Positions 1,925-47,770 of a DNA stretch of 64,000 nucleotides are shown here, piece after piece (positions within the stretch are counted from its first letter, which is position 1; the number at the start of each line of letters is the position of its first letter). The stretch lies in the NCBI RefSeq assembly GCF_016026235.1, contig NZ_CP065613.1, one strand, 5' to 3'. The notes beneath the pieces are model-generated. The model was not told the origin of the DNA and ran no database searches. It saw only the letters and a program-made list of their open reading frames with translations. Origin of the DNA: Escherichia coli. Lineage in GTDB: Bacteria; Pseudomonadota; Gammaproteobacteria; Enterobacterales; Enterobacteriaceae. Made by a program: the position numbers and the translations under genes.

Positions 1925-4555
1925 TTATTGCAATTTCGCGCTGACCCAGCCTTTCACACTGGCTAACGCTGCAGGTAAGGCCGCAGCATCCGTACCACCG
2001 GCTTGCGCCATGTCAGGACGTCCACCACCCTTGCCGCCCACCTGCTGAGCGACCATACCAATCAGTTCCCCTGCTTTCACACGATCTGTGACGTCCTTAG
2101 ATACGCCTGCAATCAGAGAAACCTTACCTTCGGCTACCGTTGCCAGCACGATAATTGTCGACCCCAGCTGATTTTTTAAATCGTCAACCATGGTACGCAA
2201 CATTTTCGGCTCAACACCGCTAAGCTCGCTAACCAACAGCTTAACACCATTAACATCAATTGCCTTACTGGAAAGATTTGCGCTCTCCTGTGCGGCAGCT
2301 TGTTCTTTAAGCTGTTGTAGTTCTTTTTCTAACTGACGCGTACGTTCCAGTACTGAGCGCACTTTATCAGCCAGATTATTGCTATCGCCTTTCAGCAGAT
2401 GTGCGACTTCGCTTAAGCGATCGCTGTCTGCATGAACGGTGGCGATAGCGCCTTCTCCGGTTACCGCTTCGATACGACGAACGCCTGCAGCAGTGCCCGA
2501 TTCAGAGATGATGCGGAACAGACCAATATCACCAGTGCGGCTGGCGTGAGTACCGCCACACAGCTCGGTGGAGAAATCGCCCATGCTCAGCACGCGTACG
2601 CGCTCATCATACTTCTCGCCGAACAGCGCCATCGCACCTTTCGCTTTCGCCGCTTCGAGATCCATGATGTTGGTTTCGATCGGCAAATTGCGACGAATCT
2701 GTGCGTTCACCAGGTCTTCGACCGCACGAATCTCTTCTGGTTTCATCGCTTCGTTGTGTGAGAAGTCGAAGCGCAGCACCTTGTCGTTAACCAGTGAACC
2801 TTTCTGCGATACATGAGTACCCAGAACCTGGCGCAGCGCAGCGTGCATCAGGTGCGTTGCGGAGTGATTCAGACGAATACGGGCGCGACGAGCCTCATCA
2901 ACATCAGCCTGCACAGCGTCGCCCACTTTCAGAGAACCCGCAGCAAGTTTACCGATGTGACCAATCGCCTGGCCGTATTTCTGCGTATCTTCCACCACGA
3001 AGGAGAAGTTAGCGCCTTTCAGTTCGCCTTTATCACCAACCTGACCGCCGGATTCCGCATAGAATGGCGTTTGATCCAGCACGACCACAGCTTCCTGGCC
3101 TGCATTGATGGCATCAACCGCTTTACCATCAACAAACAGCGCGGTCACTTTGCCGTTCAGTTCCAGATGGTCATAGCCTTTAAATTCAGATGCACTGTCA
3201 ACACGGATCATTGCGTTGTAATCGGCACCAAAGCCGCTGGCTTCGCGCGCCCGACGACGCTGCTCTTCCATTGCTGCTTCAAAACCAGCTTCGTCAACTT
3301 TGATGTTGCGCTCACGACAAACATCAGCCGTCAGGTCAACCGGGAAGCCATAGGTGTCGTACAGACGGAAAGCAGTTTCACCATCCAGCGTATCACCAGA
3401 AAGTTTTGCCAGCTCTTCATCCAGCAACGCCAGACCGCGCTCCAGAGTACGAGCAAACTGCTCTTCTTCAGTCTTCAGCACCTGCTCAACCTGCGCCTGC
3501 TGGCGTTTCAGGTCTTCACCCGCAGAGCCCATAACGTCGATCAGCGGACCAACCAGTTTGTAGAAGAAGGTTTCTTTCGCGCCGAGCATATTACCGTGAC
3601 GCACTGCGCGACGAATGATACGACGCAGTACATAACCACGGTTTTCATTGGACGGCATTACGCCATCCGCGATCAGGAACGCACAAGAACGAATGTGGTC
3701 AGCGATTACGCGCAGCGATTTATTGCTCAGATCGGTTGCGCCAGTGACTTTCGCTACCGCCTGAATCAACGTGCGGAACAGGTCGATGTCATAGTTAGAG
3801 TTAACGTGTTGCAGCACCGCAGCAATACGCTCCAGACCCATACCGGTATCTACAGACGGCTTCGGCAGCGGTTCCATCGTGCCATCGGCCTGGCGGTTGA
3901 ACTGCATGAAAACGATGTTCCAGATCTCAATGTAGCGGTCGCCGTCTTCTTCCGGACTTCCCGGAGGGCCACCCCAAATGTGGTCGCCGTGATCGTAGAA
4001 GATTTCGGTGCACGGGCCGCACGGACCAGTGTCACCCATCTGCCAGAAGTTGTCAGATGCGTATGGCGCACCTTTGTTATCGCCGATGCGAATAATACGT
4101 TCGCGCGGGATCCCGACTTCTTTTTCCCAGATTTCGTAGGCTTCGTCGTCGCTTTCATAGACGGTAACCCACAGACGCTCTTTCGGCAGGGCAAACCATT
4201 TTTCGCTGGTCAGCAGTTCCCATGCAAACTGAATGGCATCGTGTTTGAAATAGTCGCCGAAGCTGAAGTTGCCCAGCATTTCGAAGAAGGTATGGTGACG
4301 CGCGGTGTAACCGACGTTTTCCAGGTCGTTGTGTTTACCACCCGCACGCACGCAGCGTTGGGAAGTGGTAGCGCGGGAATAATTACGCTTGTCGAGCCCA
4401 AGGAACACATCCTTGAACTGGTTCATCCCGGCGTTGGTAAACAACAAAGTTGGGTCGTTATGGGGTACCAGGGAGCTGCTGGCAACTACCTGATGTCCCT
4501 TACTATGGAAAAAGTCGAGAAACGCCTGACGGATCTCAGCGGTGCTCTTGCTCAT
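1925..4555 (-). CDS. alaS: Alanine--tRNA ligase (876 aa)
   Basis: Full-length ORF, N-terminus [21 protein letters not shown], class II aaRS. Confidence 0.97.
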
Positions 4556-9905: not shown

Positions 9906-11060
<1,155 letters not shown>

Positions 11061-11067
11061 TCAACAG

Positions 11068-11090
11068 CGGAGATCCGTTAAGGATCTCCG
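11068..11090 (+). terminator. Hairpin downstream of srlD (9-bp stem cggagatcc/ggatctccg), followed by a REP-like palindrome at about 11104-11132
   Basis: Perfect inverted repeat, 5-nt loop; no strong T-tract. Confidence 0.4.
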
Positions 11091-11165
11091 TGAGACTAAT
11101 AGAATGCCTGATGCGCTACGCTCATCAGGCATACAGGACTTCCGCCACTACATTAAGGAAAAGTT

Positions 11166-11525
11166 ATGGTATCCGCACTCATCACTGTCGCCGTTATCGC
11201 CTGGTGTGCGCAACTGGCCTTAGGCGGCTGGCAAATTTCTCGTTTTAACCGTGCCTTCGACACACTATGCCAGCAAGGGCGGGTTGGCGTGGGCCGTTCC
11301 AGCGGGCGCTTTAAACCGCGGGTCGTGGTCGCCATCGCGCTGGACGATCAGCAGCGCATCGTCGACACCTTGTTTATGAAAGGACTGACCGTCTTCGCAC
11401 GACCGCAAAAAATTCCCGAAATTACGGGCATGCATTCTGCTGATTTACAGCCCGATGTGATCTTTCCCCATGATCCACTATCACAGAATGCTCTATCATT
11501 GGCGCTTAAACTGAAACGTGGATAA
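11166..11525 (+). CDS. gutM: Glucitol operon activator GutM (119 aa)
   Basis: Position between srlD and srlR; size. Confidence 0.9.
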   Translation: MVSALITVAVIAWCAQLALGGWQISRFNRAFDTLCQQGRVGVGRSSGRFKPRVVVAIALDDQQRIVDTLFMKGLTVFARPQKIPEITGMHSADLQPDVIFPHDPLSQNALSLALKLKRG

Positions 11526-11591
11526 TTTCGTTGTGAATGTTACTTGCTTGCGAAGTTATCATTTTGAAACCTAAATCAGGTAATCACGCCC

Positions 11592-12365
11592 ATGAAACCT
11601 CGTCAGCGTCAGGCCGCCATTCTGGAGTATCTGCAAAAGCAGGGTAAATGCTCGGTTGAAGAATTGGCGCAATACTTTGACACCACAGGCACAACCATTC
11701 GCAAAGATCTGGTCATTCTGGAACATGCCGGAACCGTCATTCGTACTTATGGCGGAGTGGTGTTGAATAAAGAGGAATCCGATCCGCCTATCGATCATAA
11801 AACACTCATCAACACCCACAAGAAAGAGCTGATTGCAGAAGCTGCCGTTAGTTTTATCCATGATGGCGATTCGATCATTCTTGATGCTGGCAGTACCGTT
11901 TTGCAGATGGTTCCCCTGCTCTCGCGCTTTAATAACATCACGGTGATGACCAACAGCCTGCATATCGTCAATGCGCTATCCGAACTGGATAACGAACAAA
12001 CTATCCTGATGCCAGGCGGAACGTTTCGCAAAAAATCGGCCTCATTTCACGGGCAACTGGCAGAGAATACCTTCGAGCATTTCACCTTCGATAAATTGTT
12101 TATGGGCACCGACGGCATCGATCTCAATGCGGGCGTAACCACCTTTAACGAGGTTTATACCGTCAGTAAGGCAATGTGCAATGCCGCGCGCGAAGTGATT
12201 TTGATGGCGGACTCATCAAAGTTTGGCCGTAAAAGCCCCAACGTAGTTTGCAGTCTTGAAAGCGTCGATAAGCTGATTACCGACGCAGGTATCGATCCGG
12301 CGTTTCGTCAGGCGCTGGAAGAGAAAGGGATCGATGTGATCATAACCGGAGAGAGCAATGAGTGA
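11592..12365 (+). CDS. srlR: DeoR-family glucitol repressor (257 aa)
   Basis: N-terminal [32 protein letters not shown]. Confidence 0.93.
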
Positions 12366-13323
12366 AGCACTACTGAACGCGGGACGTCAGACGTTAATGC
12401 TGGAGTTGCAGGAAGCAAGCCGTTTACCGGAACGTCTGGGCGATGATTTTGTTCGCGCCGCCAATATCATCCTGCACTGCGAAGGCAAAGTGGTGGTTTC
12501 GGGAATTGGCAAATCGGGCCACATTGGTAAGAAAATCGCCGCAACACTTGCCAGTACCGGCACACCGGCTTTTTTTGTCCATCCGGCAGAAGCACTGCAC
12601 GGCGATCTGGGGATGATTGAAAGCCGCGATGTGATGCTGTTTATCTCTTACTCCGGTGGCGCGAAGGAACTGGATCTGATTATTCCGCGTCTGGAAGATA
12701 AATCTATCGCGCTGCTGGCGATGACCGGCAAACCGACGTCACCGCTGGGCCTGGCGGCAAAAGCGGTGCTGGATATCTCCGTAGAACGCGAAGCCTGCCC
12801 GATGCACCTTGCGCCGACCTCCAGCACCGTCAATACCCTGATGATGGGTGACGCGCTGGCGATGGCGGTCATGCAGGCGCGCGGATTTAATGAAGAAGAT
12901 TTTGCCCGCTCCCACCCAGCCGGGGCACTGGGCGCTCGCTTGCTGAATAAAGTGCATCATCTGATGCGCCGTGACGATGCCATCCCACAGGTGGCGTTAA
13001 CCGCCAGCGTGATGGATGCGATGCTGGAACTCAGCCGCACCGGTCTGGGGCTGGTGGCGGTATGTGACGCTCAACAACAGGTACAAGGCGTCTTTACCGA
13101 CGGCGATTTACGTCGCTGGCTGGTAGGCGGCGGCGCACTCACCACGCCAGTTAATGAAGCGATGACGACAGGCGGCACCACGTTACAGGCGCAAAGTCGC
13201 GCCATCGACGCCAAAGAGATCCTGATGAAGCGCAAAATCACTGCCGCACCGGTGGTGGATGAAAACGGCAAACTCACCGGCGCAATTAACCTGCAGGATT
13301 TCTATCAGGCCGGGATTATTTAA
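12358..13323 (+). CDS. gutQ: Arabinose-5-phosphate isomerase GutQ (SIS + CBS domains, 321 aa)
   Basis: SIS motif [15 protein letters not shown]; operon context. Confidence 0.93.
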
Positions 13324-14834
13324 TCCTTCAATCCCAGACGTTTCGCCAGCCGATGCAGGTTGGCGACGTCGGTTTCCAGCATCCGCGCGCAGGCAGCCCA
13401 GTTGTGATGATTTTGTGCCAGTGCCTGGCGAATGGTTTCACGCTGGAACGCTTCTGTCGCTTCACGCAGGTTTTGCTTAACAACGGGCACCGCCGCCGCT
13501 TCTGGCGGCGGCAACGTCACCTCAGGAAAAGCAAAATGTTGCGCCTCAAGAATCACTTCATCGCCGTTGCGGGTGGCTCTCGCCAGCACTACCGCCCGAT
13601 GAATAGCATGTTCCAGTTCGCGCACGTTCCCCGGAAAACGATAGTGTTGCAGTAAATTTCGCGCTCCGGCACTTAATACCACGCGGGAGAGCCCCAGCCG
13701 CAAACGACACTGCTCGCAGAAATACCCCGCCAGCAGAATGACATCATCGCCCCGCTCACGCAGCGGCGGCACCGAAAGTGGAAACACGCTCAGGCGATGA
13801 AACAAGTCAGCGCGAAATCGCCCTGCCAGCACCTCTTCGCGTAAGTCGCGGTTAGTCGCCGCCAGCACGCGCACATCGACCCGCAAACTACGGTCATCGC
13901 CAACGCGCTGAATATCGCCATACTGCAACACCCTCAGCAGCTTGGCCTGCAATGCCAACGACAACTCGCCGATCTCATCCAGAAACAGAGTGCCGTTATC
14001 CGCCATTTCAAACTTCCCGCTGCGGTTACTGATAGCGCCAGTAAACGCTCCTTTCACATGCCCGAACAACTCACTTTCCGCCACACTTTCCGGCAGTGCA
14101 GCACAGTTGAGATAGACCAGCGGATTCACCGCCCGTGGCGAGGCTTCATGAATCGCTTTCGCCACCAGCTCCTTACCGGTTCCCGTCTCACCGCTGATCA
14201 GGACGTTGAGATCGGACGCCGCCACAATCTCAATCTCTTTTTTCAGTTGCGTCATGCCAGGGGACAAGCCAATCATCTGCGTCTGTTTCACCGCTTCAAA
14301 CGGCGTGGCATCGCCTGGCATCATATTCTGGCTTTCCAGTTGTTCAATCAGCAACGCATTGCTTAACGCTCCCGCCGCCAGCGCAGCAATCAGCCGTAGC
14401 TCTTCGTCGCTGAAAACATCGAACTGATCGGGCTGCATCCCGTCGAGCGTCAGTGCGCCGATCAGGTTTTGTCCGGCAAACAATGGCAGACCAACGCAGG
14501 CGTGAACCTTCAGACTCTCCTGCCCAGGAATCAAACCGTCATAGGGATCGGGCAATTCGCTGTCTGCGGGAAAGCGCACCACATCCCCGGCGCGGGCAAT
14601 CGCTTCCAGCCGTGGATGCCCTTCCAGCGCAAAGCGTCTACCGAGTACATCCTTCGCCAGCCCGTCGATGGCAAGGGGAATAAACTGCCGCGAGTCATAA
14701 CGTAGCAACGCAGAGGCATCACACTCCAGCACCTGACGCAGCGTGGTGATCAGGCGCTGAAAACGATCCTGATGACCAATCCCACGCTGCAATTCGATGG
14801 CGATATTCGCCAGCACATCAACGGAAAAACTCAT
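13320..14834 (-). CDS. norR: NO-responsive sigma54 activator NorR (504 aa; start at MSFSVDV)
   Basis: GAF + AAA+ ([14 protein letters not shown]) + HTH; divergent from norVW. Confidence 0.95.
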
Positions 14835-14846
14835 CTTTGCCTCACT

Positions 14847-14902
14847 GTCAATTTGACTATAGATATTGTCATATCGACCATTTGATTGATAGTCATTTTG
14901 AC
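14847..14902. promoter_or_regulatory. Three NorR enhancer sites (GTCA-N7-(T)GAC) in the norR-norV intergenic region
   Basis: gtcaatttgac (14847-14857), gtcatatcgac (14868-14878), gtcattttgac (14892-14902). Confidence 0.75.
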
Positions 14903-14957
14903 TACTCATTAAGGAGCATAATTTTATTTATAGAGTAAAAACAATCAGATAAAAAAC

Positions 14958-14973
14958 TGGCACGCAATCTGCA
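14958..14973 (+). promoter_or_regulatory. sigma54 promoter of norVW (TGGCAC-N5-cTGCA)
   Basis: tggcacgcaatctgca, 48 nt upstream of the norV ATG. Confidence 0.8.
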
Positions 14974-15020
14974 ATTAGCAAGACATCTTTTTAGAACACG
15001 CTGAATAAATTGAGGTTGCT

Positions 15021-16460
15021 ATGTCTATTGTGGTGAAAAATAACATTCATTGGGTGGGTCAACGTGACTGGGAAGTACGAGATTTTCACGGCACGGAATA
15101 TAAAACGCTGCGCGGCAGCAGCTACAACAGCTACCTCATCCGCGAAGAAAAAAACGTGCTGATCGACACCGTCGACCATAAATTCAGCCGCGAATTTGTG
15201 CAGAACCTGCGTAATGAAATCGATCTGGCGGATATCGATTACATCGTGATTAACCATGCAGAAGAGGACCACGCTGGGGCGCTGACCGAACTGATGGCGC
15301 AAATTCCCGATACGCCGATCTACTGTACTGCCAACGCTATCGACTCGATAAATGGTCATCACCATCATCCGGAGTGGAATTTTAATGTGGTGAAAACTGG
15401 CGACACGCTGGATATCGGCAACGGCAAACAGCTCATTTTTGTCGAAACACCAATGCTGCACTGGCCGGACAGCATGATGACTTACCTGACAGGCGACGCG
15501 GTGCTGTTCAGTAACGATGCTTTCGGTCAGCACTACTGCGACGAGCATCTGTTCAACGATGAAGTGGATCAGACGGAGCTTTTCGAGCAGTGCCAGCGTT
15601 ACTACGCCAATATCCTGACGCCGTTCAGCCGCCTGGTAACGCCGAAAATTACCGAGATCCTGGGCTTTAACTTACCAGTCGATATGATAGCGACCTCCCA
15701 CGGCGTGGTCTGGCGCGATAACCCGACGCAAATTGTCGAGCTGTACCTGAAGTGGGCCGCTGATTATCAGGAAGACAGAATCACCATTTTCTACGACACC
15801 ATGTCGAATAACACCCGCATGATGGCTGACGCTATCGCCCAGGGGATTGCGGAAACCGACCCACGCGTGGCGGTGAAAATTTTCAACGTCGCCCGAAGCG
15901 ATAAAAACGAAATCCTGACCAATGTCTTCCGCTCAAAAGGCGTGCTGGTCGGCACTTCGACGATGAATAACGTGATGATGCCGAAAATCGCCGGGCTGGT
16001 TGAGGAGATGACCGGATTACGCTTCCGTAACAAACGCGCCAGTGCTTTCGGCTCTCACGGCTGGAGCGGCGGTGCGGTGGATCGTCTTTCCACGCGCCTG
16101 CAGGATGCGGGTTTCGAAATGTCGCTTAGCCTGAAAGCGAAATGGCGACCAGACCAGGACGCTCTGGAGTTATGCCGTGAACACGGTCGCGAAATCGCCC
16201 GTCAGTGGGCGCTCGCGCCGCTGCCGCAGAGCACGGTGAATACGGTAGTTAAAGAAGAAACCTCTGCCACCACGACGGATGACCTCGGCCCACGGATGCA
16301 GTGCAGCGTCTGCCAGTGGATTTACGATCCGGCAAAAGGCGAGCCAATGCAGGACGTTGCGCCAGGAACGCCGTGGAGTGAAGTCCCGGATAACTTCCTC
16401 TGCCCGGAATGCTCCCTCGGCAAAGACGTCTTTGAAGAACTGGCATCGGAGGCAAAATGA
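15021..16460 (+). CDS. norV: Anaerobic NO reductase flavorubredoxin (479 aa)
   Basis: Full-length ORF with C-terminal rubredoxin CxxC...CPEC motifs. Confidence 0.96.
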
Positions 16461-46993: not shown

Positions 46994-47770
46994 ATGCCTC
47001 GTTTTGCAGCTAATTTATCCATGATGTTCACCGAAGTGCCTTTTATTGAACGCTTCGCCGCAGCGCGAAAAGCCGGGTTCGATGCTGTGGAATTTCTGTT
47101 TCCCTATAACTACTCCACCCTGCAAATCCAAAAGCAACTGGAGCAAAACCATCTGACACTGGCGCTGTTCAATACCGCTCCCGGAGATATTAATGCGGGG
47201 GAATGGGGATTATCCGCCCTTCCCGGACGTGAGCACGAAGCACACGCAGACATCGACCTGGCACTGGAATATGCATTGGCGCTCAATTGTGAACAAGTCC
47301 ATGTGATGGCAGGCGTCGTGCCCGCTGGCGAAGATGCTGAACGGTACCGGGCAGTATTTATCGATAATCTCCGCTACGCTGTCGACCGCTTTGCGCCACA
47401 CGGCAAGCGAATATTAGTTGAAGCACTCAGCCCCGGCGTTAAGCCTCATTATCTCTTCTCCAGCCAGTATCAGGCACTGGCTATTGTTGAAGAAGTTGCG
47501 CGAGATAACGTGTTTATTCAACTAGATACTTTTCATGCGCAAAAAGTAGATGGCAACCTGACGCATTTAATCCGCGACTACGCCGGGAAATATGCGCACG
47601 TACAAATTGCCGGACTACCTGATCGACATGAACCGGACGATGGAGAAATCAACTATCCGTGGCTGTTCCGCCTGTTCGATGAGGTGGGATATCAGGGCTG
47701 GATCGGTTGTGAATATAAACCTCGTGGCCTCACCGAAGAAGGGCTTGGCTGGTTTGACGCCTGGCGCTAA
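46994..47770 (+). CDS. ygbM: Hydroxypyruvate-isomerase-like 2-oxo-tetronate isomerase (258 aa)
   Basis: Operon position; also known as otnI. Confidence 0.88.

Follow-up and report, generated by a model that had tools for sequence, protein, structure and literature searches.

Among convergent overlaps between coding sequences, of which Escherichia coli has 58, the length distribution jumps at 4 nt, and the 4-nt YTAR stop-stop overlap, which arises easily, is the commonest kind (Lillo and Krakauer, 2007; PMC2174442). One such pair, gutQ-norR, also stands in Table 1 of the ExcludonFinder study among 165 convergent MG1655 pairs with overlapping transcripts (ExcludonFinder, 2025; PMC12288877). Two further groups of elements concern the 3' ends of transcripts. 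Rho-dependent transcripts have precise steady-state 3' ends located just past stable stem-loops without U-tracts, and such stem-loops protect against PNPase and RNase II, with rut sites immediately downstream (Dar and Sorek, 2018; PMC6061677). The second group comprises the bidirectional terminators of Ju et al. (2019), which are described as intergenic, as serving both transcripts and as Rho-independent (bioRxiv 10.1101/2022.10.23.513370).

Against this background, the gutQ/norR overlap as such is ordinary and already known. It matters little in itself: all E. coli genomes carry it in their annotation, its class was described in 2007 and the pair is on an excludon list. What is probably notable, and new here, is a hairpin just past the gutQ stop codon, a candidate 3'-end element that seems to be maintained via the synonymous sites of the opposing gene.

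The gutQ/norR junction in E. coli and related genera

In the window analysed here, a stretch of 64,000 nt of E. coli DNA, gutQ occupies 12358..13323 on the plus strand (321 aa, C-terminus ...YQAGII) and norR 13320..14834 on the minus strand (504 aa, C-terminus ...RLGLKD). The former encodes arabinose-5-phosphate isomerase and is the last gene of the srlAEBD-gutM-srlR-gutQ (sorbitol/gut) operon, and the latter encodes a sigma-54 enhancer-binding NO sensor. These identities had been proposed in a sequence-only reading of the same DNA, and they agree with RefSeq as well as with the Pfam domains of both proteins (SIS and CBS in GutQ; GAF, Sigma54_activat and AAA_lid, the sigma-54 AAA+ part, in NorR). 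The same reading had placed both stop codons on a TTAA without any intergenic space, and the sequence, the ORFs and RefSeq bear this out. The gutQ stop TAA lies at 13321-13323 (plus strand), the norR stop TAA is the complement of 13320-13322 (minus strand), and the TTAA at 13320..13323, read directly from the sequence, is common to both coding sequences (ATT TAA TC at 13318-13325 of the plus strand, in the context ...GGG ATT ATT TAA TCC TTC AAT CCC...). The stop codons overlap by 2 nt (13321-13322) and the annotated coding sequences by 4 nt: position 13320 is at once the wobble base of the last gutQ codon and the third base of the norR stop, and 13323 is the third base of the gutQ stop and the wobble base of the last norR codon. 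Neither gutQ nor norR has an intergenic 3' region.

A check for an alternative stop or reading frame gave none, with ORFs, Pfam and RefSeq all matching the called stops and frames. The SIS and CBS domains of GutQ extend to residue 317 of 321 (Pfam), which speaks for a genuine reading frame, and Pfam domains, C-termini conserved in at least 70 species and RefSeq show that the two ORFs are each a real gene ending in its native C-terminus. The mechanically called norR ORF starts at an upstream ATG at 14909 (529 aa) instead of the annotated 14834, which leaves its 3' end unaffected. The 4-nt overlap stands unchanged in the RefSeq annotation of FDAARGOS_943, of a K-12 derivative and of NC_000913.3 (gutQ 2829813-2830778, norR 2830775-2832289), with identical coordinates in the loci L001, L002 and L083. 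The 2.7 kb around the site are 99.9% identical to strain FDAARGOS_943. Within the species the region is present in 5425/5426 complete genomes, and the 91-nt junction was found in 5423/5426 with both genes annotated beneath it.

For the comparison between species, one genome per species was scanned with GutQ and both genes were extended to their stops, which yielded 80 loci. The 4-nt overlap occurs in 57/80 loci from about 18 genera of Enterobacteriaceae, including Escherichia, Salmonella, Citrobacter, Enterobacter, Lelliottia, Leclercia, Kosakonia, Kluyvera, Pseudocitrobacter, Trabulsiella and Phytobacter. A 38-nt overlap is found in 11/80 loci (Klebsiella, Raoultella and one Enterobacter sp.) and goes back to a 7-nt deletion that shifts the norR frame and adds about 10 residues to NorR (...LGLKGSPPGKSSAG), and 2/80 loci, both Enterobacter, have an 8-nt overlap. 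In the other loci an insertion or duplication separates gutQ and norR (2/80; L043 and L048), norR is missing, broken or truncated at the locus end (7/80, various taxa) or the end of gutQ falls outside the locus (1/80; L072). All four YTAR forms are used as overlapping tetramer in the 57 species (TTAA 23, CTAA 22, CTAG 10, TTAG 2), and this variation is confined to the two outer bases, each of which is the third base of one stop and the wobble base of the partner. Judging by these loci, the overlap is more than a chance feature, since it is kept across species, and the abutting layout is ancient and stable in the Enterobacteriaceae, with a flexible exact register.

A hairpin encoded by the last codons of norR

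Folding and alignment place a 13-bp hairpin in the gut-operon transcript at 13337..13370 (plus strand), beginning 14 nt after the gutQ stop. It is composed of a 4-bp outer stem (13337-13340/13367-13370) and a 9-bp inner stem (13343-13351/13358-13366) with a 2-nt bulge between them and a 6-nt loop (13352-13357), and E. coli has two extra outer pairs (13334-13335/13371-13372). On the opposite strand, the segment is coded by norR codons 489-500, a 12-residue peptide of the C-terminal helix-turn-helix within the last 16 codons. For E. coli, the plus-strand fold has its centroid at -23.5 kcal/mol; across 77 gutQ-adjacent loci, the 36-nt hairpin segment reaches -20.2 +/- 1.4 kcal/mol. At larger scale the values are ordinary, with a z-score of only -1.28 for the E. 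coli 100-nt fold and unremarkable z-scores of -0.2 to -1.6 for whole-region folds; what sets the hairpin apart is a local, evolutionary signal and not its folding energy over 100 nt.

The hairpin does not look like an intrinsic terminator, if this is defined as a GC-rich hairpin followed by at least 5 U in 8 positions. The tail at 13373..13382 (plus strand; columns 53-60 of the junction alignment A1) reads UUUCCAGCAU in this strain, and in E. coli RNA (UUUCCAGC) UUUCC directly follows the stem, so the tail, with no more than 3 U, is not a U-tract; its sequence is unconserved, other loci having TGTCTCC, CATCTCC or GAGCTCC. A scan for intrinsic terminators found none near the junction beyond chance (3 sites vs 3.6 expected), and its closest match, on the minus strand at 13279..13266, was discarded as just a weak 5-bp stem. 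Likewise, an Rfam cmscan of 11000-15200 at E<=1 gave no match at the junction. The sole match of that search was a sub-threshold NiCo-AnGGAG at 11022-11098.

The main evidence for the hairpin comes from the codons that encode it. In the alignment A1 of the 80 junctions, the hairpin segment is almost invariant in DNA and the flanks are variable. Aligning 72 intact norR orthologues by codon and taking normalised codon entropy in 12-codon sliding windows (n=429), we found the lowest synonymous diversity of norR in the windows starting at codons 485-490 (0.30 vs a mean of 0.607, sd 0.085). Mean entropy is 0.18 in the ten stem codons compared to 0.61 in 349 other conserved degenerate codons (Mann-Whitney p 1.2e-6), a level to which only 1/276 equally masked windows descends, and even the rare arginine codon CGG is retained in 66/72 norR sequences. 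The codons with an unpaired wobble base, H494 in the loop (0.85) and K498 in the bulge (0.99), do vary. Since these unpaired codons vary while the stem codons are frozen, the constraint matches the register of the hairpin.

The base pairs themselves point in the same direction, with each of the 13 inner pairs being paired in 87-100% of 79 distinct sequences. Compensatory changes from C-G to U-A are present in L016 and L050, with a U.G intermediate in L012, and also in L052. Two-sided changes affect 4 pairs vs 1.3 in shuffled alignments (reached in 0/500), and the covariation score of 0.044 compares to 0.037 in the shuffles (0/500 reach it), but only 9 cells are changed on both sides, a count reached by 118/500 shuffles. 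With so little variation in the stem, the covariation is thin. As for the acting strand, 69/79 sequences have a G.U pair whose minus-strand equivalent, A.C, is a mismatch, which speaks for the plus strand. In about 9 cells the situation is the opposite, with C.A on the plus strand and G.U on the minus strand. With this mixed evidence, the pairs alone do not assign the strand on which the hairpin acts.

The hairpin and its gene neighbourhood

A context control asked of the same peptide how it is encoded where norR lacks gutQ as a neighbour. A protein search for distant NorR orthologues was set aside, as its best 120 matches were all close relatives, and metagenome contigs were scanned instead with degenerate DNA for the 10-residue hairpin peptide with a non-GCG alanine codon (109 loci). 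Excluding GCG by design takes away one stem pair in the control; gutQ-adjacent loci with a GCA alanine codon still fold at -17 to -20 kcal/mol. The corresponding 36 nt of 104 norR orthologues without gutQ in the fetched locus reach -7.65 +/- 3.8 kcal/mol, whereas the four metagenome loci that adjoin gutQ retain the frozen codons (-17 to -20 kcal/mol). Three of the loci, L115, L151 and L192, are particularly close to the E. coli situation, being 80-83% identical to E. coli NorR, about the divergence of Klebsiella, and having the identical 12-residue peptide. They use other codons for it (GTA, GCG, CTC/TTA, CGC, CTC, CGG) and form no hairpin (-7.5 to -10), and their norR is followed by a spacer of about 150 nt to the downstream gene, which we take to be DJ-1/PfpI-like, judged by eye from its N-terminal sequence. 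The same peptide without a hairpin in these loci means that the peptide does not force the hairpin. In the contigs compared, the presence of the hairpin thus goes with the gutQ neighbour, and codon diversity, pair counts and the context control taken together indicate that protein coding does not explain the conservation of the segment.

Loci in which norR was lost or displaced allow a complementary view. In L007 (Escherichia sp.) and L071 (Kosakonia cowanii) norR-norV-norW is deleted and hypF comes next, and in L038 (Enterobacter sichuanensis) other genes are in the place of norR; in all three, a remnant of 30-56 nt of the norR 3' end still follows the gutQ stop. The hairpin in this remnant is kept and strengthened in L038 (G.U to G-C, shorter loop; z -3.2), weakened in L007 and lost in L071. 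It is also kept and strengthened in the gutQ-proximal (first) copy of L048 (z -3.95). L043 has a two-gene insertion between gutQ and norR, presumably of prlF/yhaV-like genes, as judged by eye from the N-terminal sequences, and carries a canonical terminator (GCGUUC...GAACGC followed by UUUUUCUU) after gutQ. Overall, these norR-loss loci, which are few events and not unanimous, suggest a function of the hairpin on the gutQ side.

The same data bear on the view that nothing beyond the abutment of two genes is involved. The overlap would then be the result of neutral stop-codon drift, kept since indels damage two C-termini, and the frozen codons would be due to some other constraint such as a DNA-binding site, a hot spot of recombination or insertion or local codon effects. 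The ease with which 4-nt YTAR overlaps arise as the commonest convergent kind (PMC2174442) would fit, as would the free shifts of the junction (8 nt, 38 nt), a NorR tail that tolerates a 10-residue extension, the clustering of rearrangements at the hairpin in L043 and L048 and the sparse covariation. However, the synonymous constraint follows the pairing (0.18 in paired codons vs 0.85 and 0.99 in the unpaired ones), close relatives without a gutQ neighbour show no such constraint, and the stem gains Watson-Crick pairs after norR loss, all of which make this explanation quite unlikely in our opinion.

Another explanation would have the hairpin act in the norR mRNA, where it could stabilise the message or modulate translation termination. 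The inverted repeat also folds on the minus strand (mean -16.3 kcal/mol), the hairpin occurs only in the arrangement that leaves norR without a 3' region of its own, and some variants, C.A on plus but G.U on minus, are compatible with pairing on the minus strand only. Against this, the plus-strand hairpin is the more stable one (-20.2 vs -16.3 kcal/mol), the constitutive G.U becomes a mismatched A.C on the minus strand in 69/79 sequences, and the structure is kept and even improved in L038, where norR is gone. Moreover, the hairpin lies in the translated region of norR, where ribosomes would unwind it, and an mRNA trimmed back to it would lose the stop codon, located 15-17 nt downstream of the stem. 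We therefore regard a role in the norR mRNA as improbable.

Transcript ends at the junction

According to the sequence-only reading, transcription of the two genes has to collide or to end inside the partner, and the latter is forced by the geometry: each transcript ends within the other gene because RNA polymerase must transcribe its own stop codon, which is located in the other coding sequence. For the direction from gutQ into norR, published data agree with the claim, as a Rho termination region of class 'antisense norR' is listed at K-12 2831288 (+) (Adams et al., 2021; PMC7815308, Supplementary file 2). Reads upstream/downstream of it are 87/25 without and 130/197 with bicyclomycin, giving a Rho score of 5.27 and a p of 2e-12 (PMC7815308). 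A gap-free alignment to K-12 (offset -2817455) transfers the peak to 13833 on the plus strand of our window, 510 nt past the gutQ stop and about 460 nt beyond the hairpin, a coarse position given the underlying 800-nt windows. These data were obtained in LB (PMC7815308) with the gut operon uninduced, and the transcripts concerned could start at an antisense promoter. The C/G content in a 78-nt sliding window is in keeping with this location: C-rich, G-poor, rut-like stretches of the antisense-norR RNA lie within 13649..14064 (plus strand), with C/G ratios of 1.5-1.9 at 13649-13730 and 1.5-2.5 at 13805-14064, and the first 100 nt past the hairpin are not C-rich (0.8-1.0). The curated Term-seq tables of the same study contain no 3' ends in K-12 2829xxx-2832xxx, which is uninformative, since the gut operon is barely expressed there (PMC7815308).

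On the side of norR, the tables list no minus-strand Rho region in K-12 2829xxx-2832xxx (PMC7815308). A minus-strand stem of 10+2 bp is present inside gutQ at 13284-13245; it was rejected as a counterpart structure for norR, as the gutQ codons there have ordinary diversity (0.50-0.55 vs a mean of 0.577). Two other regions of gutQ have values as low as those of its lowest synonymous windows (codons 278-296, 0.34), and gutQ holds no structure under a constraint comparable to that of the hairpin. norR is weakly expressed, and its transcripts probably end at scattered sites in antisense gutQ. An explanation by a promoter, of the sigma-54 or another type, was dropped, as the RpoN SELEX paper names just the srlD promoter and the region between norR and norV.

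Combining the hairpin with the Rho region, we propose, with a probability of roughly 55%, that Rho terminates gut read-through inside norR and that the hairpin forms the stable 3' end. The ribosome would leave at the gutQ stop, and RNA polymerase would run on into antisense norR. The untranslated RNA behind gutQ would form the hairpin of 13-15 bp and then grow increasingly C-rich, so that Rho could end transcription a few hundred nucleotides into norR (published peak at about +510). Exonucleases would finally trim the RNA back to the hairpin, leaving a stable 3' end of the gut-operon transcript. By inference, the hairpin would work in the RNA of the plus strand, as an exonuclease barrier.

A different role on the same strand would be that of a transcriptional insulator, which pauses or partly terminates gut polymerases after gutQ and thereby shields norR from antisense transcription, possibly as a weak hairpin-dependent terminator aided by head-on collisions with norR polymerases. 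In this regard, the hairpin is strong, GC-rich and followed by UUU in E. coli, and the canonical terminator inserted at the same position in L043 suggests that termination after gutQ is useful. In addition, a hairpin-encoding bidirectional terminator fixed the collision site of converging polymerases in single-molecule experiments (bioRxiv 10.1101/2022.10.23.513370). On the other hand, the U-tract is short and unconserved, the terminator scan is empty at the hairpin, and the Rho-dependent drop about 460 nt past it implies substantial read-through; norR, for its part, cannot use the hairpin, since a minus-strand end there would fall upstream of the norR stop. An insulator is hence a tentative alternative that we consider rather unlikely.

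The length of the antisense RNA leads to the question of a regulatory excludon, in which glucitol induction would drive antisense transcription into the 3' 0.5 kb of norR and lower NorR, and vice versa, thereby coupling sugar-alcohol use to the nitric-oxide response. In favour of this, the MG1655 'excludome' includes the pair (PMC12288877), antisense RNA extends some 510 nt into norR and goes beyond that with Rho inhibited, and the arrangement is conserved across the family. Nevertheless, the listing of gutQ-norR carries little information, as it is automatic because the coding sequences, and with them the transcripts, overlap. The literature searched contained no expression anticorrelation or RNase III processing of gutQ-norR, and Rho together with the hairpin would limit the antisense RNA. 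Furthermore, srlR and gutQ of Salmonella rise about 2-fold with an NO donor and do not fall, although this was a small qPCR study (PMC4960098). We give such mutual regulation little credence. Still more speculative, and highly improbable in our view, is a conserved antisense switch in which the gut operon has moved its 3'-end element out into the reading frame of the opposing regulator, and hairpin and Rho set the extent of the glucitol-induced invasion of norR and so tune the NorR nitric-oxide response to gut sugar-alcohol. As part of that reading, we estimate from the genera involved that the junction is >100 My old.

Significance and comparison with known systems

If Rho and the hairpin define the gut 3' end as proposed, the junction is a testable example of synonymous sites of one gene being fixed for the RNA structure of the opposite-strand transcript. 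In that case, synonymous changes or codon optimisation at the norR 3' end would not be neutral for the sorbitol operon, and the 3'-end signals of a neighbour could distort dN/dS or codon-usage analyses near convergent gene ends. Should the hairpin be borne out, the remaining convergent overlaps of E. coli, about 58, could be screened genome-wide for hidden 3'-end elements, using low synonymous diversity in stem-loop register at the overlapping ends as criterion.

Compared with the systems introduced above, the overlap has the same geometry as the known 4-nt stop-stop overlaps, with stops one base apart on opposite strands, and does not differ from them in kind (PMC2174442). What gutQ/norR adds to the class of Lillo and Krakauer is a conservation depth of about 18 genera together with the lineage variants of 8 nt and 38 nt. 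With the convergent excludons it shares the convergent pair with overlapping transcripts (PMC12288877), but classical excludons have long overlapping UTRs and shown mutual repression or RNase III processing, whereas gutQ and norR overlap in their coding sequences.

The bidirectional terminators of Ju et al. (2019) are similar in being palindromic hairpins without U-tract at the place where convergent units meet (bioRxiv 10.1101/2022.10.23.513370). Unlike these elements, the gutQ hairpin can serve the gutQ side alone, and Rho dependence is reported for the region. Read in the direction of norR, the hairpin runs from 13370 to 13337 and ends 15 nt before the norR stop (13322-13320), and norR transcripts must pass it because it precedes their stop codon.

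The closest likeness in our proposal is to the class of Dar and Sorek (2018), with a stable stem-loop shortly 3' of the stop codon, no U-rich tail and, probably, Rho termination downstream (PMC6061677). Two differences to that class are that the rut-like sequence lies 100-300 nt downstream instead of immediately behind the stem-loop, and that the 3' end is a predicted one here. The third is that the gutQ hairpin is drawn wholly from the coding sequence of the convergent gene, where it appears to be held by the synonymous sites of norR.

Reading frames and overlaps around norR

In the Klebsiella and Raoultella loci, a 7-nt deletion directly past the gutQ stop shifts the norR frame, so that the C-terminus of NorR is longer by about 10 residues (…LGLKGSPPGKSSAG) and the gutQ and norR coding sequences overlap by 38 nt. 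This 38-nt overlap set, with the junction at approximately 3929-3966 of each locus, comprises L055, L057-L059, L061, L062, L064, L067, L068, L070 and L051. At the other end of the gene, 25 more open codons lie upstream of the annotated norR start in the window (14835-14909, minus strand), reaching up to an ATG at 14909, and the longer NorR form of 529 aa is used by some database entries, for example P0001. Two further overlaps nearby, srlR/gutQ (8 nt, 12358-12365) and norV/norW (4 nt, 16457-16460), are co-directional and of the ordinary same-strand kind.

Duplication, insertion and loss downstream of gutQ

Besides this deletion, several other loci carry larger rearrangements at the junction. 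In Kosakonia quasisacchari (L048, 3964-4215), the norR 3′ end is present three times in tandem with a period of about 84 nt, including the conserved stem-loop that lies just past the gutQ stop (13337-13370 in the window), and these repeats are placed between gutQ and an intact norR. The stem is improved in the copy nearest gutQ (GGCTGGCG); a mismatch is present in the middle copies (GGTTAGCG). In Enterobacteriaceae bacterium UBA7338 (L043, 3967-4948), gutQ and norR are separated by a 972-bp insertion with two minus-strand ORFs of 158 and 111 aa, which we take, from a by-eye reading of their N-terminal sequences, to resemble the YhaV toxin and the PrlF antitoxin. Here, a norR 3′ remnant of about 30 nt adjoins gutQ; next come a hairpin resembling a canonical terminator and UUUUUCUU, and norR is intact beyond the insertion. 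The entire norR-norV-norW cluster is absent downstream of 3966 in Escherichia sp. MOD1-EC7003 (L007) and Kosakonia cowanii (L071), where hypF is the convergent partner of gutQ instead; the former retains a 46-nt norR remnant, followed by REP-like palindromes.

Transcription upstream of gutQ

A second Rho termination region is located inside srlR at 11891 on the plus strand (K-12 2829346), with upstream/downstream reads of 697/76 without and 386/156 with bicyclomycin and a score of 3.7 (Adams et al., 2021; PMC7815308). Therefore, much of the gut-operon transcription in LB may end short of gutQ. The srlD-gutM spacer (11022-11098, plus strand) weakly matched the Rfam model of the NiCo-AnGGAG riboswitch (E 0.0098); at 26.9 bits, the hit is far under the gathering score of 64.5 and is most likely a chance match to a local hairpin.

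Comparison with the closest complete genome

The closest complete genome to the window is that of FDAARGOS_943. The window is without the IS1 copy that adjoins csrA in this strain (~1405-1418) and without the IS5-family element by which a TIM-barrel gene close to otnC is interrupted there (~47522-47525). Furthermore, hycC (608 aa) and fhlA (704-aa ORF) are whole in the window, whereas the RefSeq record of FDAARGOS_943 marks them as partial or frameshifted. The minus-strand rpoS (~52174-53166) is broken by a frameshift at 52614-52630: one ORF ends in KELNVYL, its stop codon lying at 52627-52629, and the rest of the protein (SHKLDHEPS...ALFRE) is encoded in a different frame from 52614 onwards. 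In the near-identical FDAARGOS_943, rpoS is likewise marked “frameshifted” in RefSeq.
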